This document shows, piece by piece, positions 1,544 to 43,758 of a DNA stretch of 64,000 nucleotides; the first letter of the stretch is position 1; the number at the start of each line of letters is the position of its first letter. The position numbers were made by a program, and so were the translations under genes. The stretch is from assembly GCF_003019035.1 (NCBI RefSeq), contig NZ_CP027447.1. One strand, 5' to 3'. The notes under the pieces were generated by a model. That model was not told where the DNA came from. It made no database searches and saw only the letters and a program-made list of their open reading frames with translations. This stretch comes from Escherichia coli (GTDB lineage: Bacteria > Pseudomonadota > Gammaproteobacteria > Enterobacterales > Enterobacteriaceae).

Positions 1544-4171
1544 TTATTCTTCTTCTGGCTCGTCGTCAACGTCCACTTCCGGAGCGATTTCATCGTCCCC
1601 TTCCGCGGCACTGCCGTCGATGGTATCCAGATCTTCCTCGTCAACCGGTTCAGCAACACGTTGCAGACCCACTACGTTTTCATCTTCCGCAGTACGGATG
1701 AGGATCACACCCTGGGTGTTACGGCCCACGATGCTGATTTCTGAAACGCGAGTACGTACCAGCGTACCGGCATCGGTGATCATCATGATCTGGTCGCAGT
1801 CATCTACCTGCACTGCGCCAACCACTAAACCGTTACGTTCGGTAACCTTGATGGAAATAACCCCTTTCGTCGCACGCGACTTGGTTGGGTATTCCGCCAC
1901 TGCGGTACGTTTACCATAACCGTTCTGCGTTGCGGTGAGGATTGCGCCATCACCACGAGGTACGATCAGAGAGACGACTTTATCGCCTTCGCCTAAACGA
2001 ATACCGCGAACACCGGTGGTGTTGCAGCCCATCGCACGGACAGAAGACTCTTTAAAGCGCACCACTTTACCTTCAGCGGAGAACAGCATTACTTCATCTT
2101 CGCCACTGGTCAGGTCAACGCCGATCAGCTCATCGCCTTCAACCAGTTTGATCGCCACTTTACCGGCAGTACGCAGACGGTTGAATTCGGTGAGGACGGT
2201 TTTCTTCACAGTTCCGTTAGCGGTCGCCATGAAGACTTTCACGCCTTCTTCAAACTCGGTCACTGGCAGGATCGCAGTGATACGTTCGTCTTGCTCCAGC
2301 GGCAGCAGGTTGACGATCGGACGACCGCGCGCGCCACGAGTAGCTTCTGGCAACTGGTAGACCTTCATCGAATAGACGCGACCACGGCTGGAGAAGCACA
2401 GAATATGGTCGTGGGTATTCGCCACCAGCAGTCGGTCGATAAAGTCTTCTTCTTTAATACGTGCGGCAGATTTACCTTTACCGCCACGACGCTGCGCTTC
2501 GTATTCAGAAAGCGGCTGATACTTCACGTAGCCCTGGTGAGAGAGCGTCACGACCACATCTTCCTGGGTGATCAGATCTTCCAGGTTGATGTCTGCGCTG
2601 TTGGCGGTGATTTCAGTACGACGTTTGTCACCGAACTGTTCACGAACCAGCTCCAGCTCTTCGCGGATCACTTCCATCAGACGATCGGCGCTACCAAGAA
2701 TACGCAACAGTTCCGCGATCTGATCCAGCAGCTCTTTGTATTCGTCGAGCAGTTTTTCGTGCTCAAGGCCGGTCAGTTTCTGCAGACGCAGATCCAGAAT
2801 CGCCTGAGCTTGCTGTTCGGTCAGGTAGTACAGACCATCGCGCACGCCGAACTCTGGCTCCAGCCATTCCGGACGCGCAGCATCGTCGCCAGCACGTTCC
2901 AGCATCGCGGCAACGTTGCCCAGCTGCCACGGATTAGCAACCAGCGCGGTTTTCGCTTCTGCAGGCGTCGGCGCATGACGGATCAGTTCGATGATCGGGT
3001 CAATGTTCGCCAGCGCCACGGCTAATGCTTCAAGGATATGAGCACGATCGCGAGCTTTACGCAGTTCGAAAATAGTACGACGGGTCACCACTTCACGGCG
3101 GTGACGAACAAACGCCGCGATGATGTCTTTCAGGTTCATGATCTTCGGCTGACCATGGTGCAATGCCACCATGTTAATACCGAAAGAAACCTGCAACTGG
3201 GTCTGGGAGTAGAGGTTGTTGAGCACCACTTCACCGACCGCATCGCGTTTCACTTCAATCACGATGCGCATACCGTCTTTGTCAGACTCGTCACGCAGCG
3301 CGCTGATACCTTCCACGCGTTTTTCTTTTACCAGTTCCGCAATCTTCTCGATCAGGCGCGCTTTGTTCACCTGATACGGAATTTCATGGACGATAATGGT
3401 TTCACGTCCGGTTTTGGCGTCAACTTCCACTTCAGCACGGGCGCGGATATATACCTTGCCGCGACCGGTACGGTAAGCTTCTTCAATACCGCGACGACCA
3501 TTAATGATTGCCGCCGTCGGGAAGTCCGGCCCAGGAATGTGTTCCATCAGCCCTTCAATGCTGATGTCTTCATCATCGATATACGCCAGACAACCGTTGA
3601 TAACTTCCGTCAGGTTGTGCGGCGGGATGTTGGTTGCCATACCTACGGCGATACCGGAGGAACCGTTCACCAGCAGGTTAGGAATTTTGGTTGGCATGAC
3701 GTCCGGAATTTTTTCCGTGCCGTCATAGTTATCAACGAAATCGACCGTCTCTTTTTCGAGATCGGCCATCAGTTCATGGGCAATTTTCGCCAGACGGATT
3801 TCCGTATAACGCATTGCCGCCGCAGAGTCGCCGTCGATGGAACCGAAGTTACCCTGACCGTCTACCAGCATGTAACGCAGCGAGAATGGCTGCGCCATAC
3901 GGACGATCGTGTCATAAACCGCCGAGTCACCATGGGGATGGTATTTACCGATTACGTCACCAACGACACGGGCAGATTTTTTATAGGCTTTGTTCCAGTC
4001 ATTGCCTAGTACGTTCATGGCGTAAAGTACGCGACGGTGTACCGGCTTCAGGCCATCTCGGACATCCGGCAGCGCACGGCCAACAATGACCGACATCGCA
4101 TAATCCAGATAGGAGCTCTTCAGCTCTTCCTCAATGTTGACCGGTGTAATTTCTCTCGCAAGGTCGCTCAT
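1544..4171 (-). CDS. gyrA: DNA gyrase subunit A
   Basis: 875-aa ORF with the canonical E. coli GyrA sequence ([47 protein letters not shown]; active-site region; acidic C-terminal tail). QRDR reads [11 protein letters not shown], i.e. Ser83 and Asp87. Confidence 0.97.
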
Positions 4172-4384
4172 CTAACCGCTATCCCTCTACTGTATCCCGG
4201 ATTCAAAGGTCGGAGATTATAACACAATCGCTTGCGGACGGGTAAACGTAATGCAGGCTTCCGGGCGCTGTAGATCTACTGCGTTTTACCCCACCGCCAG
4301 CACACATCGCGCTGGCGGTGAACGACAAAGGAACAAAGACCGCAACACGCTTCCTGTGCCTCAATAAACACCAGAAATAATGGC

Positions 4385-4548
4385 TATACTCGTCATACTT
4401 CAAGTTGCATGTGCTGCGTCTGCGGGTTATTCGGCCCATCCATGGGCCTCACCCCTTACGGGGCCGCTGCAAGCAGCGTTCAAATCCGCTCCATGCGGAT
4501 TTGTCGCTCACCCCAGTCACTTACTTATGTAAGCTCCTTGGGATTCAC
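4385..4548. repeat. ERIC (enterobacterial repetitive intergenic consensus / IRU) element
   Basis: Both classic ERIC ends are present: actcgtcatacttcaagttgcatgtgctgcg at the left, and cgctcaccccagtcacttacttatgtaagctccttgggattcac at the right. The right end contains the complements of the standard ERIC2 and ERIC1R primer sequences. It is intergenic, between the gyrA promoter region and the island. Confidence 0.8.
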
Positions 4549-4599
4549 TCGCTTGTCGCCTTCCTGCAACTCGAATTATTTAGAGTATATAAATCGCCG

Positions 4600-5802
4600 T
4601 TATTTGATCACATAGGCAAGATATTGTTGTACGATTTCATCGTTTAATTCCTGACCAAGCCCAGGCAACTCTGGCGCGACATAATAGCCATTCTCGGGTT
4701 GATAATCGTAAGTACAAAGTTCCCGAATACATGCTTTCATCGCATTGGTATGATGTTCATGAATAATAAAGTTAGGTATTGCAGTTTCCATATGCAGCGC
4801 CGCTACTGTTGAAACAGGCCCGCCACAAACATGTACCTGAACGGTTGTGTCATATATATTGGCATAATCACAAATTTTCTTTCCCTCTGTAATGCCACCA
4901 CAAAGACACAAATCAGGTTGAGCTACCGCAATTGATTGTTTTTCCAGTAAATCACGATATCCCCAGCGAGTATAAGAACGCTCACCTGTTGCTATCGGAA
5001 TCGATGTTGAACGGGCAACTTTCTGCATATTATCCGAATTTAATGGATGAATTGGCTCCTCATAGAGAAAAATACGATATTTCTCTATTGCTTTGGCAAA
5101 CTGGATCGCTGAATTTGTTCCTAGAAGAGAATGAATCTCTACAATAATATCAGCATCGTCGCCCATTGCTTCACGCATAGCGGCAATTCTTGTCTCGCCC
5201 ATTTTTAATTGTTCGGCCAGTAATAAGCCAGAGTAATTTCTATTTTTGTTCTGAAAGACACAATCGCCGCCATGCAGATCGATTTCAAGCGGATCAACTT
5301 TTATCGCATTATAACCTTCTGCAATAGCGGCACGCGCTGCCTCTGCATACTCTTCAGGCGTTACTAATATTTGCCTTTTTTCGCCCCAACCAAATTGTAA
5401 CTGACTGGCGTAAGTTCTCAATTTATCGTTAGTCTTTCCCCCCAGTAGTTGATAAACCGGCACGTTTAAATATTTACCTTTAATATCCCATAAGGCAATA
5501 TCAATAGCGCTCATACCTGCGTAAAAAACATTACCACCGCCCATTCCCCAAAATGTTTTCCTGAAGAGGAATTCCCAAATCTTCTCAATGTTCAACGGAT
5601 CTTCACCAATGATGAGAGGGGCTAAATCTCTGATAATACCAACACCAGATTTTGCACCTGCGCCATAGGCTAATCCTACTTCGCCAACACCACTTATTCC
5701 AGCATCGGTATTAACCCGAATAAGTACTGGATTATAAGAGGCCATAGTTTGATCTCTTTTTTTGAGTTCGCAGTCAAAAATTTCTACAGATGTAATCTTC
5801 AT
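4600..5802 (-). CDS. Enolase-superfamily acid-sugar dehydratase (mandelate racemase/muconate lactonizing enzyme fold; D-galactonate/D-mannonate dehydratase-like)
   Basis: ORF 4600-5814; preferred start is the second ATG at 5802 (MKITSVEIF...), which has a GAGG Shine-Dalgarno 6 nt upstream. Motifs such as AIDIALWDIKGKYLNVPVYQLLGG and GERSYTRWGYRDLLEKQSIAVAQPDLCLCGGITEGKKI resemble DgoD/RspA/RhmD-type dehydratases. Substrate cannot be assigned. Confidence 0.8.
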   Translation of the reverse strand: MKITSVEIFDCELKKRDQTMASYNPVLIRVNTDAGISGVGEVGLAYGAGAKSGVGIIRDLAPLIIGEDPLNIEKIWEFLFRKTFWGMGGGNVFYAGMSAIDIALWDIKGKYLNVPVYQLLGGKTNDKLRTYASQLQFGWGEKRQILVTPEEYAEAARAAIAEGYNAIKVDPLEIDLHGGDCVFQNKNRNYSGLLLAEQLKMGETRIAAMREAMGDDADIIVEIHSLLGTNSAIQFAKAIEKYRIFLYEEPIHPLNSDNMQKVARSTSIPIATGERSYTRWGYRDLLEKQSIAVAQPDLCLCGGITEGKKICDYANIYDTTVQVHVCGGPVSTVAALHMETAIPNFIIHEHHTNAMKACIRELCTYDYQPENGYYVAPELPGLGQELNDEIVQQYLAYVIK

Positions 5803-5814
5803 AAATAACCTCAT

Positions 5815-7143
5815 TTATTTAGCATGTGAAATAACATTGTCTTTCTGGGCGTTATCTTTTTTATTATCAATTTTCATTGATAACAAAATAGCTACGGCGA
5901 TAAAGCAAAGAATCGCCTCAACAATAAATATCCCCGTGGCTCCATAATGTGTAGAAACATAGCCAAGTGATTTATTGATCAGAAAACCACCCAAACTTGA
6001 ACAAGAGTTAATAAACGCAATACTGATTGCCAGGCCTGATGGTGAAAGTAAAGCTGAGGGTAAAGCCCAGTACGGACCGTAATAACTGAGAATGCCTACA
6101 CCGTATAATGTTAATCCCATCATGCGCAGCGTCATCGAAGGTACAAGTGCGATCATTAAAAAACCGCAACCTGCAACCAACATCGGTAGTGCGGCATGCC
6201 ATTTCCTTTCATTCTTTTTATCGGAATGCCATCCCCATAATGGCATACTGAACATCGCGAAAATAAACGGAATACTCATAATCAAACCGACATCGGTATC
6301 TGTGAAATCCGATGAAAATCCTTTAACCAACCCCGGTAACCAGTAATTTGCCGCCAACGCCGCTGCCTGAATAAACATATAAGCAAATGAGAGTTGTAGT
6401 AATACTGGATTTTTAATGATTGACAGAAAAGATGCATTTGTATTTTTATTTAATGCTGCGGCTTTTTCGTTATCAGAATTAAGTTTATCGACCAATGCGG
6501 TGACTTGCGATGGTGTAAGCCAGCGGGCTTTTTCCGGACGATCTGGCAGTAAATAAAAGGTCAGCGCCCCCAATAACACCGTAGGAATGCCTTCAATAGC
6601 AAAAAGCCAGCGCCATCCTTCATAGTTACCGGTATTCATATGTTCAATAATCCAACCAGACATTGGTGCCGCCAGCACAGATGCAACTGCGATTGATAAC
6701 ATAAAAAAGCTATTCACTTTTCCACGTTCACGCGCCGGGAACCAACATGCCAGGTAGTAAACCATGCCAGGGAAAAAACCCGCTTCAAATATTCCCAAAA
6801 AGACCCGAGCGAGCAATATATGCTGGGTGTCTTTGGCAAAGAAAATTAACGTTGTTACTGTTCCCCAACCAACAATAATGGCGCTAATCCATTTTCTTGC
6901 ACCTAACTTTTGCAATCCAATACTGCTCGGAATTTGAAAAATCAAATAGGACACAAAAAATATTGAAGATATATTAGCAAAATCCTCTGGAGTAATACCA
7001 AGGGATTCATTCATGCGTAAAGCGGCAAATCCGATGTTAACACGATCCATATAGTTAAAAAAATACAGAATAAATGCTAACGGAATAATCTTCCTTTTCA
7101 CAATAGAAATGGCGTCATACAAATCTTTCTGAGGACTGCTCAT
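5815..7143 (-). CDS. MFS transporter, anion:cation symporter (ACS) family, putative sugar-acid permease
   Basis: 442-aa ORF with good SD (AAAGGTGA). Hydrophobic multi-helix protein with ACS signature regions ([33 protein letters not shown]) paralogous to RhmT in this window. Its stop abuts the dehydratase start. Confidence 0.85.
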   Translation of the reverse strand: MSSPQKDLYDAISIVKRKIIPLAFILYFFNYMDRVNIGFAALRMNESLGITPEDFANISSIFFVSYLIFQIPSSIGLQKLGARKWISAIIVGWGTVTTLIFFAKDTQHILLARVFLGIFEAGFFPGMVYYLACWFPARERGKVNSFFMLSIAVASVLAAPMSGWIIEHMNTGNYEGWRWLFAIEGIPTVLLGALTFYLLPDRPEKARWLTPSQVTALVDKLNSDNEKAAALNKNTNASFLSIIKNPVLLQLSFAYMFIQAAALAANYWLPGLVKGFSSDFTDTDVGLIMSIPFIFAMFSMPLWGWHSDKKNERKWHAALPMLVAGCGFLMIALVPSMTLRMMGLTLYGVGILSYYGPYWALPSALLSPSGLAISIAFINSCSSLGGFLINKSLGYVSTHYGATGIFIVEAILCFIAVAILLSMKIDNKKDNAQKDNVISHAK

Positions 7144-7233
7144 TTTGTTTCACCTTTTGTGCTTCAATGAATAAGAGTACTGCCCGAAGTGGATATTACG
7201 TAAAAAATAATCCAGTTCAAAAGGTGATGTGTT

Positions 7234-7249
7234 ATATCTGATATATCAG
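7234..7249. promoter_or_regulatory. Candidate operator 1 in the divergent MFS/GntR promoter region; contains the perfect 12-bp palindrome CTGATATATCAG
   Basis: atatctgatatat at 7234-7246, with the palindrome ctgatatatcag at 7238-7249. The same 13-mer recurs at 7304-7316. Located between divergent genes, one of which is a GntR regulator. Confidence 0.5.
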
Positions 7250-7303
7250 CTTGATCATTGATTGAAACACTAAGCTACAACAATAAGATATATCATTTTT
7301 GTC

Positions 7304-7316
7304 ATATCTGATATAT
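7304..7316. promoter_or_regulatory. Candidate operator 2 (second copy of ATATCTGATATAT)
   Basis: Exact 13-bp direct repeat of the 7234-7246 motif, 70 bp downstream and about 65 bp upstream of the GntR start codon. Confidence 0.45.
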
Positions 7317-7380
7317 TAGACACCTTCATTGATAAAATGATTACATATAATGGACCAGCAGCTTAATAAGGGGCAAAGGA

Positions 7381-8079
7381 ATGAGAGATAAAGCGAAACG
7401 TGACTTAAGTCACATATCAATTGAGATACCAAAATCCGTAACACAGGTCATCAAAGAAAAAATCAGGGATATGATAATTCATGGCGATCTCAGTCTTGGG
7501 CAACCGATAAGTGAAAATGAACTTTCGAATATCCTGGCGGTAAGTAAAACACCTATTCGTGAAGCTTTTATTTTACTTAGTCACAATGAAAATCTGATCA
7601 ATATCATTCCACGCAGCGGAACATTCGTTTTTTCCGTAACAGATAAAGATATTAATGACCTCATAAAAATGCGAGTAATTCTGGAGCAGGGTGCAATTCG
7701 TGAAGCAATGGAAAAGAATGAAAACAATGTCATCATTGAATTAAGTAGCATACTATCAAAATCAGCAAAAATTAATGCCGAGCGTGATACTCAGGCTTAT
7801 CTTAAATTGGATCATGATTTTCATTATGTGTTTGTTAAATACGCTGCTAATAAATACATCTCTCAGGCACACCAATTGATATCCGCACGTTTACTTGCTA
7901 TTCGTTATCGACTGGATTTCACTACGGAATATATTACCAATTCAAATCGTGGCCATGCCACTATTTTAGATATGCTAAAAAATAATAACGTTGAAGGTGT
8001 TTGTAATTTTATTACTCATCACGTAAGTAGTGGATTTACCGAGCGTGCACGAAAAATTCTCTCGTTATCTACACAGTAA
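7381..8079 (+). CDS. GntR-family (FadR/FCD-type) transcriptional regulator
   Basis: 232-aa ORF with an N-terminal winged-HTH pattern (LSLGQPISENELSNILAVSKTPIREAF) and a helical C-terminal ligand-binding-like domain. Divergent to the transporter-dehydratase pair; AGGGG SD 8 nt upstream. Confidence 0.8.
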   Translation: MRDKAKRDLSHISIEIPKSVTQVIKEKIRDMIIHGDLSLGQPISENELSNILAVSKTPIREAFILLSHNENLINIIPRSGTFVFSVTDKDINDLIKMRVILEQGAIREAMEKNENNVIIELSSILSKSAKINAERDTQAYLKLDHDFHYVFVKYAANKYISQAHQLISARLLAIRYRLDFTTEYITNSNRGHATILDMLKNNNVEGVCNFITHHVSSGFTERARKILSLSTQ

Positions 8080-8156
8080 AATGTGAATGAGTTTATAACA
8101 CTGGCACTTTTCACCTGCTATACTGCCCGACAACCTTTATAGACTCTTATGTAACA

Positions 8157-18077: not shown

Positions 18078-19268
18078 TTAATGAATTTCTTTTGCCGCTA
18101 CTAGCATGACACCGCTTTTGCCCTTCATTTGCAGCGCATAGACTCCACCAGCCACTACCACTAATAGTGCACCCAGCAGATAAATCATTCGGTAGCCAGT
18201 ATGTGCAACCATCATCCCCATCACACAGGCTCCCAGCGCCAGGCCTGCATCCATCGCATTGAAGAAGAGGGAGTTTGCGACACCGATTTTATGCGGTTCC
18301 ACTGAACTGATAATCTGCGTCTGAAAAACTGGCGTCACGGAACCATACCCGATACCAATCAACGCGCCAGAAACAACCATCATTATGCTTCCCTGGGTGT
18401 AGCCGAGAACCACCAGTCCAACCGTAAAGAACACAAGGCAAGGGTAAACCACATATTTCGGTCCTTTTTTGTCGCAGACATTGCCGGTAAAGGTACGGCA
18501 GATCATCAGGAAGATAGCGTAGCAAAGCAGGAAATTACTGGCTGCCGACATCAGGTTAAGTTCGCGTGCATAAAGCGCCAGAAAAGCAGAAACCCCGGCA
18601 TACGAAAAGGTCATAAAAAAGGTGACCATCGCAAATGGCAACGCCGCGCGATCGAACATGGCGGCGAAGCCCATTTTCGGCGTTGAACCATCAGCATGGC
18701 TGATAACCGGCGGCACTGTCATAATCAGCGACAGAATAATCCCCACCGCTGCCACGCCGGTGCATAACCAGAAAGCCATATTAAAGGCCTCCCAGCGCGC
18801 CATATTCAGGCCAATCCACGGCCCGACCACCATTGCCAGCCCCATTGCCAGAGAGAAAAAACTGATGCCCTCCCCACGTCGGGAGGCCGGGATCAGCCGC
18901 GCGGAAATCGTTCCTTTTACCGTAGTGATAACCCCGAAGGTAATACCATGAAGCACCCGAATAAAAAGCAGTGATTCAATTGAGTGGCAAAAAGGATACA
19001 GCGCAGTGACCACCAAGAAGGCCAGAGAAGAGAGCCCCAGAATAGTTTTATTCGAATATTTGCCCACCCATTGCCCGGCAAAGGGGCGAATAACAATGGC
19101 GGCAATTAAAAATAAAGTCACCAACAAACCTGCTTTATCAGGAGAGGCATGCAAGCGGTCTGAGATATAAATTGGCAACAATGTTAGTAAAACATAAAAG
19201 ACGAAGAAAATAATAAAACTGATGATGGTTATTGCCCAAAAATCCTTCGTCCATAACTTCTCTTTCAT
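18078..19268 (-). CDS. MFS transporter (12-TM, drug/metabolite:H+ antiporter-like)
   Basis: 396-aa highly hydrophobic ORF with MFS loop motifs (GQWVGKYSNK, RLIPASRRGEG). Divergent from a LysR regulator. Confidence 0.8.
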   Translation of the reverse strand: MKEKLWTKDFWAITIISFIIFFVFYVLLTLLPIYISDRLHASPDKAGLLVTLFLIAAIVIRPFAGQWVGKYSNKTILGLSSLAFLVVTALYPFCHSIESLLFIRVLHGITFGVITTVKGTISARLIPASRRGEGISFFSLAMGLAMVVGPWIGLNMARWEAFNMAFWLCTGVAAVGIILSLIMTVPPVISHADGSTPKMGFAAMFDRAALPFAMVTFFMTFSYAGVSAFLALYARELNLMSAASNFLLCYAIFLMICRTFTGNVCDKKGPKYVVYPCLVFFTVGLVVLGYTQGSIMMVVSGALIGIGYGSVTPVFQTQIISSVEPHKIGVANSLFFNAMDAGLALGACVMGMMVAHTGYRMIYLLGALLVVVAGGVYALQMKGKSGVMLVAAKEIH

Positions 19269-19419
19269 ACCCTACCGCCTGTCAGGATGACGCACGCAGA
19301 CAACACTCCCGTTACTGCGGTTGCGTCAAATTGTGATGTACTTTGCAGAACAGAAGTATAAATGGCGGCATGCTATTAGAGAAATTAATCGTTTTAATAT
19401 TATTGATTAGCAAACTCTA

Positions 19420-20319
19420 ATGACTCTTACCCAAATAAATTCTTTACTCGCCGTGCTGGATTACGGTGGCTTTACTGAAGCCAGCAAGCGATTGTTCATG
19501 ACGCAGTCGGCGGTAAGTCAGGCAATTGCTGCCCTCGAACAAGAACTTGGCGTGAATATACTGTTACGCGATCGCCGTAAAGCTATACAACTGACCTCTG
19601 CAGGTCACCGCATTATGCATCATCTGCGCGCCATTAATCGGGAAGTGAACGCAGTAAAAGAGATAGCCGAGCAGGAAAAGCAGAACCCTCAAAGAACGCT
19701 GAGACTTGGTTGTTTCCCCAGCGTCTGCGCCTGTATCTTACCGGCTGTGATTCGCTACTTTGAAATTCATCATCCGAATATAAAAATTATTCCTTTTGAG
19801 GAAAATAGCACAGCGATTATTGATTCCCTTCAGAATGAATCCATTGATGCCGGTTTTGTTCATTTTCCGGTGAGCGGAATGTACTCCGTGCCCATTTATC
19901 AGGATAAATTCACCGTAGTGTTACCGCCCAACCATGCTCTGGCAAAAAACAGCACTATTACAGTGGAAGAGTTAATGGGTGAACCATTAATTATTAGTAA
20001 AGGACGCTATGAATTAAGCATTATGGCACTATTTAAAGAAAAGAATATTACCCCACAGATAAAATATGAATTTAATCACCCGGATACAGCGATCAGTTTT
20101 ATTCGACAGGGATTAGGCATCGCCTTATTACCAGAGTTAACGCTGAAAACCATTGCAGATGAATTGTGTTCCGTTCCTCTCGAACCAACCTTCTATCGAC
20201 AGATTTCGTTGCTGACTAAAGAAAAGCCGGTAGAAGGCAGTCCACTGTTTTTACTACAAATGTGCACAGAACAATTAGTGGAGAGTGGAAAATTTGATAT
20301 GAGACAGGATGGCGCATGA
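19420..20319 (+). CDS. LysR-family transcriptional regulator
   Basis: 299-aa ORF with N-terminal HTH (GGFTEASKRLFMTQSAVSQAIAALEQELGVNILLRDRRK) and a LysR substrate-binding domain. As I recall, K-12 has only the pseudogene fragment yfaH at this position. Confidence 0.8.
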   Translation: MTLTQINSLLAVLDYGGFTEASKRLFMTQSAVSQAIAALEQELGVNILLRDRRKAIQLTSAGHRIMHHLRAINREVNAVKEIAEQEKQNPQRTLRLGCFPSVCACILPAVIRYFEIHHPNIKIIPFEENSTAIIDSLQNESIDAGFVHFPVSGMYSVPIYQDKFTVVLPPNHALAKNSTITVEELMGEPLIISKGRYELSIMALFKEKNITPQIKYEFNHPDTAISFIRQGLGIALLPELTLKTIADELCSVPLEPTFYRQISLLTKEKPVEGSPLFLLQMCTEQLVESGKFDMRQDGA

Positions 20320-27307: not shown

Positions 27308-28222
27308 ATGACCGAATCAACAACCTCCTCCCCGCATGATGCGGTATTTAAAACCTTTATGTTCACACCCGAAACCGCACGGGATTTTCTGGAAATACAT
27401 CTACCAGAGCCGCTGCGCAAGCTTTGCAACCTGCAAACCTTACGCCTGGAACCCACCAGTTTTATTGAAAAAAGTTTACGCGCTTACTACTCGGATGTTT
27501 TGTGGTCTGTGGAAACCAGCGACGGTGACGGCTATATCTACTGCGTGATTGAACATCAAAGCTCTGCAGAAAAGAATATGGCTTTTCGGCTAATGCGCTA
27601 TGCCACTGCCGCCATGCAACGTCATCTGGACAAAGGCTATGACAGAGTCCCGCTGGTGGTACCATTGCTGTTTTATCATGGCGAAACCTCGCCCTACCCG
27701 TACTCACTCAACTGGCTGGATGAGTTTGACGATCCGCAACTTGCCCGGCAGTTGTACACCGAAGCTTTTCCGTTGGTGGATATCACCATCGTACCTGACG
27801 ATGAGATCATGCAACATCGGCGTATAGCTCTGCTGGAACTGATTCAAAAGCATATTCGCGACCGCGATTTAATCGGTATGGTCGACAGGATCACCACGCT
27901 TTTGGTTAGAGGCTTCACTAATGACAGCCAGCTACAAACACTGTTTAATTATCTGCTGCAATGCGGCGATACCTCCCGTTTCACCCGTTTTATTCAGGAG
28001 ATTGCCGAACGTTCACCACTACAAAAGGAGAGATTAATGACTATTGCTGAACGGCTACGGCAGGAAGGACATCAAATTGGCTGGCAGGAGGGTAAATTAG
28101 AAGGCATGCATGAACAAGCCATTAAAATTGCCTTGCGCATGCTGGAACAGGGCATTGATCGTGACCAGGTGCTCGCGGCCACTCAGCTAAGCGAAGCCGA
28201 TCTGGCAGCGAATAACCACTAA
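27308..28222 (+). CDS. yfaD: Rpn-family recombination-promoting nuclease (YhgA-like, PD-(D/E)XK, transposase_31 fold)
   Basis: 304-aa ORF ([36 protein letters not shown] ... YSDVLWSV ... YCVIEHQS) typical of the RpnA-E family. No flanking inverted repeats seen. Confidence 0.85.
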
Positions 28223-36049: not shown

Positions 36050-36129
36050 ATTCTATCCTTAAAATTTCGCTCCAAATGGCAAAATATACACAACACTCTT
36101 TATAGCAAATATAAGTGGACAGGTATTCA

Positions 36130-37287
36130 ATGGCGGAAGGAAAAGCAATGTCAGAATTTTTGCCTTTTTCGCGACCAGCAATGGGCGTAGAGGAACTCGC
36201 TGCAGTTAAAGAGGTTCTCGAATCCGGTTGGATCACAACCGGTCCGAAGAATCAGGCGCTTGAACAAGCCTTTTGCCAGTTGACGGGAAATCAGCATGCC
36301 ATCGCGGTCAGTTCAGCCACCGCCGGAATGCATATCACGCTAATGGCGTTGGAAATTGGCAAGGGCGATGAAGTGATTACGCCTTCCATGACCTGGGTTT
36401 CAACCCTCAATATGATTTCCTTGCTGGGTGCAACGCCGGTAATGGTGGATGTCGACCGCGATACGCTGATGGTCACGCCTGAAGCGATCGAGTCAGCCAT
36501 TACGCCACGCACTAAAGCCATCATTCCGGTGCATTATGCCGGTGCGCCAGCAGATATTGACGCCATTCGCGCCATTGGCGAACGTTACGGCATCGCAGTT
36601 ATCGAAGATGCTGCCCATGCCGTCGGTACGTATTACAAAGGGCGACATATTGGCGCAAAAGGTACCGCTATTTTTTCATTTCATGCCATTAAAAATATTA
36701 CCTGTGCTGAAGGTGGCCTGATTGTAACTGATAATGAAAACCTTGCCCGCCAGCTACGGATGCTGAAATTTCACGGTCTGGGTGTCGATGCCTATGACAG
36801 ACAAACCTGGGGCCGTGCACCGCAAGCTGAAGTCTTAACACCGGGCTATAAGTACAATCTGACCGATATTAACGCCGCGATTGCCCTGACCCAGTTAGCC
36901 AAATTAGAGCACCTCAACACCCGTCGGCGCGAAATTGCCCAGCAATATCAGCAAGCACTGGCAGCTCTCCCCTTTCAGCCATTAAGCCTTCCCGCCTGGC
37001 CGCACGTTCACGCCTGGCATCTGTTTATTATTCGTGTCGATGAACAACGTTGTGGTATCAGTCGCGATGCGTTGATGGAAGCGTTAAAAGAAAGAGGCAT
37101 TGGTACCGGGTTACATTTCCGCGCCGCTCACACACAAAAATATTATCGCGAGCGTTGTCCCACGCTGTCGTTACCGAATACCGAATGGAATAGCGAACGC
37201 ATCTGTTCGTTGCCGCTGTTCCCGGATATGACCACCGCCGATGCCGACCGCGTCATCACAGCCCTTCAGCAACTCGCAGGACAATAA
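36130..37287 (+). CDS. arnB: UDP-4-amino-4-deoxy-L-arabinose--oxoglutarate aminotransferase
   Basis: ORF from GTG 36115. ATG 36130 gives 385 aa ([10 protein letters not shown]...); an alternative ATG at 36148 has a stronger AAGGA SD. DegT/ArnB PLP aminotransferase. Confidence 0.93.
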
Positions 37288-38258
<971 letters not shown>

Positions 38259-38259
<1 letters not shown>

Positions 38260-40241
38260 TGAAAACCGTCGTTTTTGCCTACCACGATATGGGATGCCTC
38301 GGTATTGAAGCCCTGCTGGCTGCCGGTTACGAAATTAGCGCCATTTTTACCCATACCGATAATCCCGGTGAAAAAGCCTTTTATGGTTCGGTGGCTCGTC
38401 TGGCGGCGGAAAAAGGCATTCCGGTTTATGCGCCGGATAACGTTAATCATCCGCTGTGGGTGGAACGTATTGCCCAACTCTCACCAGAGGTGATTTTCTC
38501 TTTTTATTATCGCCATCTTATTTGCGACGAGATTTTGCAGCTCGCTCCCGCAGGTGCATTTAATCTGCATGGTTCGCTGTTACCAAAATATCGTGGTCGC
38601 GCGCCGCTGAACTGGGTGCTGGTGAACGGTGAAACGGAAACTGGCGTTACATTGCACCGAATGGTGAAACGTGCCGATGCCGGGGCCATTGTGGCGCAAC
38701 TGCGCATTGCCATTGCGCCAGACGATATCGCCATTACGCTGCATCATAAGTTATGTCATGCCGCGCGCCAGCTACTGGAGCAGACATTACCCGCCATTAA
38801 ACACGGTAATATTCTGGAAATCGCCCAGCGCGAAAACGAAGCCACCTGTTTTGGTCGCAGAACACCGAAAGACAGTTTCCTCGAATGGCATAAACCGGCA
38901 TCCGTGCTGCACAACATGGTGCGTGCCGTTGCCGATCCGTGGCCGGGTGCCTTCAGCTATGTTGGTAATCAGAAATTTACCGTCTGGTCGTCACGCGTGC
39001 ATTCTCATGCGCCCGCAGCACAACCGGGGAGCGTGATTTCTGTTGCGCCACTGCTGATTGCCTGTGGCGATGGCGCGCTGGAAATCGTCACTGGACAGGC
39101 GGGCGACGGCATTACTATGCAGGGCTCGCAATTAGCGCAGACGCTGGGCCTGGTGCAAGGTTCACGCTTGAATAGCCAGCCTGCCTGTGCCGCCCGACGC
39201 CGTACCCGGGTACTCATCCTCGGGGTGAATGGCTTTATTGGCAACCATCTGACAGAACGCCTGCTGCGCGAAGATCATTATGAAGTTTACGGTCTGGATA
39301 TTGGCAGCGATGCGATAAGCCGTTTTCTGAATCATCCGCATTTTCACTTTGTCGAAGGCGATATCAGTATTCATTCCGAATGGATTGAGTATCACGTCAA
39401 AAAATGTGATGTCGTCTTGCCTTTGGTGGCGATAGCCACGCCGATTGAATATACCCGCAACCCGCTGCGCGTATTTGAACTCGATTTCGAAGAGAATCTG
39501 CGCATTATCCGCTACTGCGTGAAGTACCGTAAGCGAATCATCTTCCCGTCGACTTCAGAAGTTTATGGGATGTGTAGCGATAAATACTTCGATGAGGACC
39601 ATTCTAATTTAATCGTCGGCCCGGTGAATAAACCACGCTGGATTTATTCGGTGTCTAAACAATTACTTGATCGAGTGATCTGGGCCTATGGCGAAAAAGA
39701 AGGTTTACAGTTCACCCTCTTCCGCCCGTTTAACTGGATGGGGCCACGACTGGATAACCTTAATGCAGCGCGAATTGGCAGCTCCCGCGCTATTACGCAA
39801 CTCATTCTCAATCTGGTAGAAGGTTCACCGATTAAGCTGATTGATGGCGGAAAACAAAAACGCTGCTTTACTGATATTCGGGATGGTATCGAGGCGTTAT
39901 ACCGCATTATCGAAAATGCGGGAAATCGCTGCGATGGCGAAATTATCAACATTGGCAATCCTGAGAACGAAGCGAGCATTGAAGAACTGGGGGAGATGCT
40001 GCTGGCGAGCTTCGAAAAACATCCGCTGCGCCATTACTTCCCACCGTTTGCGGGCTTTCGTGTTGTCGAAAGTAGCAGCTACTACGGCAAAGGATATCAG
40101 GACGTAGAGCATCGTAAACCGAGCATCCGCAATGCCCGCCGCTGCCTGGACTGGGAACCGAAAATTGATATGCAGGAAACCATCGACGAAACGCTGGATT
40201 TCTTCCTGCGCACCGTTGATCTTACGGATAAACCATCATGA
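38259..40241 (+). CDS. arnA: Bifunctional UDP-glucuronic acid decarboxylase / UDP-Ara4N formyltransferase
   Basis: 660-aa ORF with an N-terminal formyltransferase domain and a C-terminal SDR decarboxylase domain ([14 protein letters not shown]); ATGA overlap with arnC. Confidence 0.96.
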
Positions 40242-41128
40242 CCAAAGTCGGCTTACGCATTGATGTCGATACCTTTCGTGGCACCCGTGAAGGCGTGCCG
40301 CGTCTGCTGGAAATCTTGAGTAAGCATAATATTCAGGCCAGCATTTTTTTCAGCGTCGGCCCGGACAATATGGGCCGCCATCTCTGGCGACTGGTGAAGC
40401 CACAGTTTTTGTGGAAGATGCTGCGCTCAAACGCGGCATCGCTTTATGGCTGGGATATTTTACTGGCAGGTACGGCCTGGCCAGGTAAAGAGATTGGTCA
40501 TGCCAATGCCGATATCATTCGTGAAGCGGCTAAATACCACGAAGTCGGCCTGCACGCCTGGGATCACCACGCCTGGCAAGCCCATAGCGGCAACTGGGAT
40601 CGGCAAACGATGGTCGACGATATTGCACGAGGCCTTCGTACCCTGGAAGAGATTATCGGCCAACCAATAACCTGCTCCGCTGCCGCTGGCTGGCGTGCCG
40701 ACCAACAGGTGATCGAAGCAAAAGAAGGGTTCCATTTGCGCTACAACAGCGATTGTCGTGGGGTGATGCCGTTTCGTCCCTTGCTCGACTCAGGAAAACC
40801 CGGCACTGCGCAAATCCCGGTGACCTTACCCACCTGGGATGAAGTGATTGGTCGGGATGTGAAAGCAGAAGATTTTAACGGTTGGTTACTCAACCGCATC
40901 CAGCGAGATAAAGGCACGCCGGTTTACACCATTCATGCCGAAGTTGAAGGCTGCGCTTATCAGCATAATTTTGTGGATCTCCTGAAACGCGCAGCTCAGG
41001 AAGGCGTGACATTTTGCCCTTTAAGCGAACTGTTATCAGGGATGTTGCCGCTCGGACAAGTTGTTCGCGGAAATATTGCCGGACGTGAAGGCTGGCTGGG
41101 TTGCCAACAAATTGCGGGTAGTCGCTGA
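40238..41128 (+). CDS. arnD: 4-deoxy-4-formamido-L-arabinose-phosphoundecaprenol deformylase
   Basis: 296-aa polysaccharide-deacetylase-family ORF; overlaps the arnA stop. Confidence 0.94.
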
Positions 41129-42780
41129 TGAAATCGGTACGTTACCTTATCGGCCTCTTCGCGTTTATTGCCTGCTATTACCTGTTACCGATCAGCACGC
41201 GTCTGCTATGGCAACCCGATGAAACGCGTTATGCGGAAATCAGTCGGGAAATGCTGGCTTCCGGCGACTGGATTGTGCCTCATCTGTTAGGGCTACGTTA
41301 TTTCGAAAAACCCATTGCCGGATACTGGATTAACAGCATTGGGCAATGGCTATTTGGCGCGAATAACTTTGGTGTGCGGGCAGGCGTTATCTTTGCGACC
41401 CTGTTAACTGCCGCGCTGGTGATCTGGTTTACTCTGCGCTTATGGCGCGATAAACGTCTGGCACTACTCGCCGCTGTCATTTATCTCTCGCTGCTTATTG
41501 TCTACGCCATCGGCACTTATGCCGTGCTCGATCCGTTTATTGCCTTCTGGCTGGTGGCGGGAATGTGTAGCTTCTGGCTGGCAATGCAGGCACAGACGTG
41601 GAAAGGCAAAAGCGCGGGATTTTTACTGCTGGGAATCACCTGCGGCATGGGGGTGATGACCAAAGGTTTTCTCGCCCTTGCCGTGCCGGTATTAAGCGTG
41701 CTTCCATGGGTTGCAACGCAAAAACGCTGGAAAGATCTCTTTATTTACGGCTGGCTGGCGGTTATCAGTTGCGTACTGACGGTTCTCCCCTGGGGACTGG
41801 CGATAGCGCAGCGGGAGCCTGACTTCTGGCACTATTTTTTCTGGGTTGAGCATATTCAACGCTTTGCAATGGATGATGCTCAGCATAGAGCTCCGTTCTG
41901 GTACTACTTGCCGGTCATCATTGCCGGTAGCCTGCCGTGGCTGGGATTACTCCCCGGAGCACTGTACGCAGGCTGGAAAAACCGCAAGCATTCCGCAACC
42001 GTCTATTTGTTGAGCTGGACGATAATGCCGCTGCTGTTTTTCTCCGTCGCTAAAGGCAAATTGCCCACCTATATTCTTTCCTGCTTTGCACCTCTGGCAA
42101 TGCTGATGGCGCATTACGCTTTGCTGGCAGCAAAAAATAATCCTCTGGCGCTGCGGATTAATGGCTGGATTAACATCGCTTTTGGTGTCACTGGCATTAT
42201 TGCCACATTTGTGGTCTCCCCATGGGGACCAATGAACACGCCAGTGTGGCAAACCTTCGAGAGCTATAAAGTCTTTTGTGCCTGGTCGATTTTTTCGCTA
42301 TGGGCATTTTTCGGCTGGTACACCTTAACAAACGTCGAAAAGACCTGGTCTTTTGCCGCGCTTTGCCCGCTGGGGCTGGCGTTGCTGGTAGGATTTTCAA
42401 TTCCTGACAGAGTCATGGAAGGAAAACATCCGCAATTTTTTGTCGAGATGACACAAGAATCACTTCAGCCAAGCCGCTATATTCTTACTGATAGCGTCGG
42501 TGTTGCCGCAGGTCTGGCATGGAGCCTGCAACGCGATGACATCATCATGTATCGCCAGACAGGTGAGTTGAAATACGGCCTTAATTATCCGGATGCGAAA
42601 GGGAGATTTGTCAGCGGTGATGAGTTCGCAAACTGGCTTAATCAACATCGTCAGGAGGGGATTATTACACTCGTACTTTCGGTTGACCGCGATGAAGATA
42701 TCAACAGTCTCGCCATTCCGCCCGCAGATGCCATCGATCGTCAGGAGCGTCTGGTGCTGATTCAGTATCGTCCCAAATGA
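41128..42780 (+). CDS. arnT: Undecaprenyl phosphate-alpha-4-amino-4-deoxy-L-arabinose arabinosyl transferase
   Basis: 550-aa polytopic membrane glycosyltransferase (GT83). Confidence 0.95.
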
Positions 42781-43112
42781 TCTGGCTAACATTAGTCTTT
42801 GCCAGCTTGCTTAGCGTTGCCGGGCAGTTGTGTCAGAAACAGGCAACCTGCTTTGTGGCGATAAACAAACGGCGCAAACATATCGTGCTGTGGCTGGGAC
42901 TGGCGCTGGCTTGTCTTGGTCTTGCCATGGTGCTCTGGCTGCTGGTCTTGCAGAACGTACCGGTAGGCATTGCCTACCCGATGTTAAGTCTGAATTTTGT
43001 CTGGGTGACGCTGGCTGCAGTAAAACTGTGGCACGAACCGGTATCGCCGCGTCACTGGTGTGGGGTGGCGTTCATTATTGGTGGCATTGTGATCCTCGGG
43101 AGTACCGTGTAA
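42777..43112 (+). CDS. arnE: Undecaprenyl-phosphate-Ara4N flippase subunit ArnE
   Basis: 111-aa 4-TM small multidrug resistance-like protein; overlaps the arnT stop. Confidence 0.9.
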
Positions 43113-43498
43113 TGGGCCTGATGTGGGGATTATTCAGCGTCATTATCGCCTCCGCTGCGCAATTAAGCCTGGGTTTTGCGGCGAGTCATCTGCCGCCGAT
43201 GACGCACTTATGGGATTTTATCGCGGCGCTGTTAGCTTTTGGCCTGGATGCCCGGATACTGTTACTCGGGCTGCTGGGTTATCTGCTTTCCGTTTTTTGT
43301 TGGTATAAAACACTACATAAACTTGCACTAAGCAAAGCCTATGCCTTGCTCAGTATGAGTTATGTGCTGGTATGGATTGCTTCAATGGTACTTCCCGGCT
43401 GGGAAGGAACTTTTTCGCTGAAAGCACTACTGGGAGTAGCCTGTATTATGAGCGGGTTGATGCTGATTTTCCTGCCCACGACAAAACAACGTTACTGA
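43112..43498 (+). CDS. arnF: Undecaprenyl-phosphate-Ara4N flippase subunit ArnF
   Basis: 128-aa ORF starting [23 protein letters not shown], read in a frame inside the track ORF 42830-43498; TAATG overlap with arnE. Confidence 0.88.
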
Positions 43499-43758
43499 GT
43501 TTTCCCTGCCACTTTACACTGCCGTTCCCACTCATCGGGGCTGTAGCTGCTTGCCGAGAGGACTTTCACCGTATGCAGCTTTTCACGATTAATACAATAA
43601 AGCGCATTCTGCAAAGGCGAGAGTAAATCCCCCACTTTCACGGCGAAGTCACTCTTCACTTCGGCAATCATTTTTATCGTGCCACCAGCATCACAAAGCT
43701 TAAGTACATGTCTGTTATCTTGTTTATCACAGCATGACTTTTTAACCAGCCATTCCAT
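43492..43758 (-). CDS. pmrD: Signal transduction connector protein PmrD
   Basis: ORF 43492-43788. Preferred start is ATG 43758 ([26 protein letters not shown]), giving 88 aa; convergent with arnF and overlapping its 3' end by 7 nt. Confidence 0.9.

Follow-up and report, generated by a model that had tools for sequence, protein, structure and literature searches.

The gyrA quinolone-resistance-determining region of an Escherichia coli strain nearly identical to the commensal SCU-301 is wild type

The question raised by the gyrA gene in this 64-kb stretch of Escherichia coli DNA (the whole of the stretch analysed being referred to here as the window) is whether the quinolone-resistance-determining region (QRDR) of its product carries the residues of a drug-susceptible gyrase, as an earlier note on this DNA had claimed, and how far such a reading informs on the quinolone susceptibility of the strain. 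The coding sequence of DNA gyrase subunit A (875 aa) was placed at 1544..4171 on the minus strand by the list of open reading frames with their translations, by profile searches and by structure alignment, and it consists of a single uninterrupted reading frame of 875 codons with its ATG at 4171. In the profile searches with the translated protein, the NCBIfam equivalog model for gyrA (TIGR01063) scored 1309.7 bits against a cutoff of 877, and the GyrA model NF004043 scored 1258.7 bits against a cutoff of 902. The alignment with full-length E. coli GyrA (PDB 6rks_A) is gap-free from end to end (1-875/1-875), with 874/875 identical residues (E = 0, 1917 bits), and because of this the E. coli GyrA numbering is directly valid for the window. 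The K-12 protein (NP_416734.1, b2231; PDB 6rks chain A) has the same length of 875 aa and an identical QRDR, Tyr122, GyrA box and acidic tail, and differs from the protein encoded here only by D678E, outside the QRDR.

All three of the latter elements were located on the minus strand. The catalytic tyrosine is encoded by codon 122 (TAT, 3806..3808) and was found by translation in the context AAMRYTE (residues 118-124); the GyrA box QRRGGKG (residues 560-566) was found by motif search at 2474..2494; and the acidic C-terminal tail (residues 844-875), which is the same as in the reference according to translation and the 6rks_A alignment, is encoded at 1547..1642. By nucleotide match to the window gene, GyrA is annotated in 5425 of 5,426 complete E. 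coli genomes, and in all of these as gyrA. The chromosomal order yfaA-gyrA-ubiG is that of K-12, with an extra insert of 3.9 kb on the ubiG side. Near-identity to the characterized protein suggests that this GyrA would have negative-supercoiling activity together with GyrB.

The QRDR is taken here in the definition of Yoshida et al. 1990, as cited in PMC7407071, i.e. as codons 67-106. Translation of the minus strand at 3854..3973 gives exactly these codons, from Ala67 to Gln106, so that the position proposed in the earlier note, which had left the strand unstated, is borne out. Over this region the alignment to the reference GyrA, which the note had suggested as a check, was run and revealed no substitution at residue 83 or 87; the protein is identical to that of K-12, with the DNA agreeing at 117/120 nt. 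Codon 83 (3923..3925, minus strand) translates from TCG to serine, where S83L would be read as TTG, and codon 87 (3911..3913, minus strand) translates from GAC to aspartate, where D87N would be AAC; by the E. coli numbering, then, both residues are wild type, as had been claimed. The 19-residue peptide that the note quoted spans residues 76-94 (window 3890-3946), and a translation of the window in six frames contains it only this once.

Translation also showed wild-type residues at the minor GyrA positions A51, A67, G81, D82, A84, Q106, A119 and A196, which are further sites reported to affect quinolone susceptibility. As a positive control, the gyrA of strain SMS-3-5 was read by the same script and gave TTG (Leu83) and AAC (Asn87); since the procedure returns S83L/D87N for that strain, it is able to tell mutant from wild type. 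The gene and its residues were identified directly in this analysis, which found none of the known GyrA resistance substitutions. It is thus almost certain that the stretch is the QRDR of an E. coli gyrA which is intact and functional and has the ancestral, drug-susceptible sequence, and that the strain is to be predicted quinolone-susceptible as far as gyrA goes. The earlier note had also held this to be a useful genotype call for the strain; the call itself is correct, but it is routine, being the standard read-out of tools of the PointFinder/AMRFinder type, and its practical value is limited.

At the DNA level, the gyrA of the window differs from that of K-12 at 58 nucleotides (97.8% identity), and because 57 of the 58 differences are synonymous, strong purifying selection in the gyrA frame is indicated. 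Three of the silent changes lie in the QRDR, namely (from K-12 to the window) GTC to GTT in codon 85 (3917), CGC to CGT in codon 91 (3899) and TAT to TAC in codon 100 (3872). A full-text search of the literature for these three silent polymorphisms found no paper that names them; in a comparison restricted to four strains (the window, K-12, SMS-3-5 and WB61) they appear to be common lineage markers. The one change that alters the protein, D678E, is located in the C-terminal domain, where codon 678 (2138..2140, minus strand) reads GAA (Glu) in the alignment to 6rks_A and K-12. This substitution has been tabulated for several sequence types, in the presence as well as in the absence of S83L/D87N (PMC10638923), and its distribution is as expected for a lineage polymorphism.

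The allele as a whole is rare. Among the 5,426 complete E. coli genomes, 5,425 of which gave a match, the nucleotide identity to the window gyrA is 100% in SCU-301 only (gene product WP_001281251.1) and at most 98.9% in the other 5424. The relationship to SCU-301 extends well beyond this gene, as all 64 kb of the window correspond, in reverse complement, to positions 1664766-1728765 of that genome (NZ_CP051751.1), save for two SNPs, at window 14890 (nrdA) and 45020 (menE), and two 1-nt indels, both in elaD; gyrA is free of differences. SCU-301 is a human commensal of phylogroup F that was isolated from a rectal swab of a healthy student (PMC7407071, PMC11251922). On its sequence type the two papers disagree, with 67 in Table S1 of PMC7407071 against ST967 in PMC11251922, a conflict that is probably typographical. 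The combination of a rare gyrA DNA allele with a near-invariant protein arises because the strain belongs to this phylogroup F commensal lineage, to whose representative SCU-301 it is essentially identical.

The next-best genomes over the first 25 kb of the window, with 99.0% identity, are SMS-3-5 (NC_010498.1) and its relatives. SMS-3-5 has a phylogroup F backbone and shares with the window the gene order, including the insert between gyrA and ubiG, as well as the silent QRDR background GTT85/CGT91/TAC100; its gyrA differs in carrying S83L (TTG), D87N (AAC) and D678, with 42 nucleotide differences over the gene. The mismatches between the two strains are patchy, amounting to ~2% per kb over gyrA (2001-4000) and ~0.2% in the adjoining insert (4001-7000), which suggests the recombination mosaic that is usual in E. 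coli. It is possible, though on balance doubtful, that the rare gyrA allele was acquired by a local recombination import rather than simply inherited vertically within a rare lineage. Such an import would explain the uneven mismatch density against the closest backbone, but could equally well have occurred into SMS-3-5, the gyrA of which combines S83L/D87N with a K-12-like D678; moreover, gyrA is no outlier for its lineage, given that the 25-kb block overall shares no more than 99.0% identity with the next genome. A phylogroup F lineage that has been sampled only sparsely, together with ordinary mosaic recombination, is an adequate explanation for the rarity of the allele, and the direction of an import, whichever way it went, leaves the wild-type residue call unchanged.

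A different objection concerns not the residues but what they are taken to mean. With the QRDR wild type, susceptibility could still be reduced by qnr, aac(6')-Ib-cr, qepA/oqxAB or by efflux mutations in marR, acrR or soxR, in which case the "susceptible" call would be misleading. The 64-kb window is without any of these loci, with marR, acrR, soxR and ompF lying outside it, and it can be seen from published isolates that the situation does arise, since two of 25 quinolone-resistant isolates had no known gyrA/parC mutations and qnrS was present in one isolate (PMC7407071). The annotation of the 64-kb region lists no qnr, aac(6')-Ib-cr, qepA or oqxAB. The genes for the other drug targets, parC, parE and gyrB, are also outside the window and were therefore read in SCU-301, where the known target positions have wild-type residues (for ParE 416-529, for GyrB 426/447). 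It has to be noted that these data, like those on plasmid content and phenotype, come from SCU-301 as a proxy, from which the window strain differs at four sites in 64 kb.

In detail, the parC of SCU-301 encodes A56, S57, G78, S80 and E84, and its product differs from that of K-12 only by D475E; parE encodes L416, I444, L445, S458, E460, I464, D475, D476 and I529, the sole difference from K-12 being T172A; and gyrB encodes D426, K447 and S464, with S492N, A618T and E656D as the only differences. The one plasmid of SCU-301, the mobilizable pSCU-301-1 (5.9 kb; 5,892 bp), codes for mobilization and replication proteins, and neither qnr nor other resistance genes were found on it. The strain is moreover recorded without a resistance phenotype or resistance genes: its row in Table S1 of PMC7407071 has "-" for both, with an empty ResFinder result. 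The disk panel of that study included nalidixic acid and norfloxacin, and other isolates in it are marked "NAL" with "gyrA S83L" (PMC7407071). Genotype and published phenotype are thus consistent for the near-identical strain. Against this background a reduced susceptibility hidden behind the wild-type QRDR is very improbable, and the reading as a quinolone-susceptible strain, as far as gyrA goes, is retained.

The region upstream of gyrA offers a further way in which the residues might not tell the whole story. The extended -10 element TGTTATAAT, at 4216..4224 on the minus strand, is conserved in the comparison with K-12 and is presumably part of the gyrA promoter. The high identity to K-12 extends only to 4226, a short way upstream of this element, with weak similarity continuing to ~4243, and the promoter discriminator differs from that of K-12 by 3 nt. 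The spacer between gyrA and ubiG measures 146 bp in K-12, as against ~3.9 kb of inserted DNA here (window ~4227-8156), so that what lies upstream of the gyrA -10/-35 region in K-12 has given way to the insert. The latter contains the gene of an enzyme of the MR/MLE (mandelate racemase/muconate-lactonizing) family (4600-5814, minus strand), for which the best model, galactonate dehydratase, scored 248.9 bits and thus under its cutoff of 311; that of an MFS transporter (5815-7143, minus strand); and that of a frameshifted GntR regulator (7337-8079, plus strand). This insert of sugar-acid genes is present at full length in only 140 of the 5,426 complete E. coli genomes.

An ERIC/IRU repeat, which includes the exact ERIC2 primer sequence AAGTAAGTGACTGGGGTGAGCG, is situated at ~4385-4598, separating the gyrA promoter from the 3' end of the MR/MLE gene. 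The repeat is multi-copy in every genome, with a median of 6 places per genome for the query as a whole; the version found in SMS-3-5 is 71 bp longer than that of the window, at ~4545. Judging from the sequence, the insert and the ERIC element upstream of about -40, the changed discriminator and D678E could conceivably alter the expression of gyrA or its supercoiling-responsive control, a prospect to which we attach only a very slight probability. If this were true, the altered control of gyrA could shift the quinolone susceptibility or the supercoiling set-point of the strain despite a wild-type QRDR.

A reading of the locus that is barely conceivable would have the feature belong on the plus strand, where an open reading frame of 323 aa (3038-4009) overlaps the QRDR in antisense orientation and would be a real gene. 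The frame is open in the window and likewise in K-12, SMS-3-5 and WB61, but it is absent from the annotation of every record compared, and the 20 nucleotide differences from K-12 within 3038-4009 lead to 19 amino acid changes in the antisense protein and to none in GyrA. Because 19 of its codons are changed by 20 differences, against none in gyrA, the plus-strand frame is to be regarded as non-coding, and its candidacy as a gene was ruled out on the ground that nearly each nucleotide difference alters the antisense protein while none alters GyrA.

The GyrA box separates GyrA from ParC, from which it is absent. That the gene might be parC or another paralogue among the type IIA topoisomerases, with the E. 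coli GyrA numbering inapplicable as a consequence, can be dismissed, for although E. coli ParC has a homologous type IIA cleavage core with a near-identical HPHGDS motif (as read in the SCU-301 protein) and residues Ser80/Glu84 corresponding to GyrA Ser83/Asp87, and although the NCBIfam parC models give significant E-values on the window protein, the latter scores only 581.5 bits with TIGR01062 (parC_Gneg), under the cutoff of 628.9, far exceeds the cutoffs of the gyrA models with its scores there, is identical to E. coli GyrA over its full length at all but one residue, possesses the QRRGGKG box that ParC lacks and is encoded in the conserved yfaA-gyrA-ubiG order, the true parC being located elsewhere in the near-identical genome of SCU-301.

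Several other loci of the window were observed in passing. The elaD gene, for a deubiquitinase of the ElaD/SseL family, is an intact frame of 405 aa (52936-54153, plus strand), and is annotated as frameshifted in SCU-301 owing to two 1-nt deletions near window 53848 and 53887, which may be assembly errors or real differences between the strains. At 18078-20319, between inaA and glpQ, there is a pair of genes for a LysR regulator (299 aa, plus strand) and an MFS transporter (396 aa, minus strand), the latter resembling drug-efflux families only weakly and below cutoff; the K-12 counterpart of this pair is the yfaH pseudogene remnant, and the LysR protein has a match to the 68-aa YfaH model NF007272 at residues 226-291. 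The annotation of SCU-301 places an rpnE / ISNCY-family transposase at 27308-28222 (plus strand), between glpC and yfaU. The arnBCADTEF operon, pmrD and ais are contained in window 36115-43500, with several of the Arn proteins having strain-specific accessions; arn and pmrD serve the aminoarabinose modification of lipid A, which is relevant to polymyxin resistance.

As to the meaning of the wild-type residues, Ser83 and Asp87 belong to helix alpha-4 in the winged-helix domain of GyrA, close to the catalytic Tyr122, and coordinate the water-Mg2+ bridge to the keto-acid of the quinolone in the cleavage complex, a bridge which is broken by S83L and D87N. With both residues intact, the gyrase of this strain would be expected to stay the fully sensitive primary target of fluoroquinolones. 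This mechanism of drug binding, and with it the susceptible phenotype, we infer from established knowledge of the enzyme. Codons 83 and 87 of gyrA are the first-step targets of fluoroquinolone resistance in E. coli, and therefore a wild-type QRDR predicts that there is no target-mediated resistance. The call made here for the window is already known, in that it agrees with what has appeared in print on SCU-301, a commensal essentially identical to this strain, and it raises no new question of biology. For the strain itself, a wild-type gyrA QRDR alone argues against high-level resistance mediated by the drug target, and is compatible with a susceptibility reduced by efflux or by plasmid-borne determinants.
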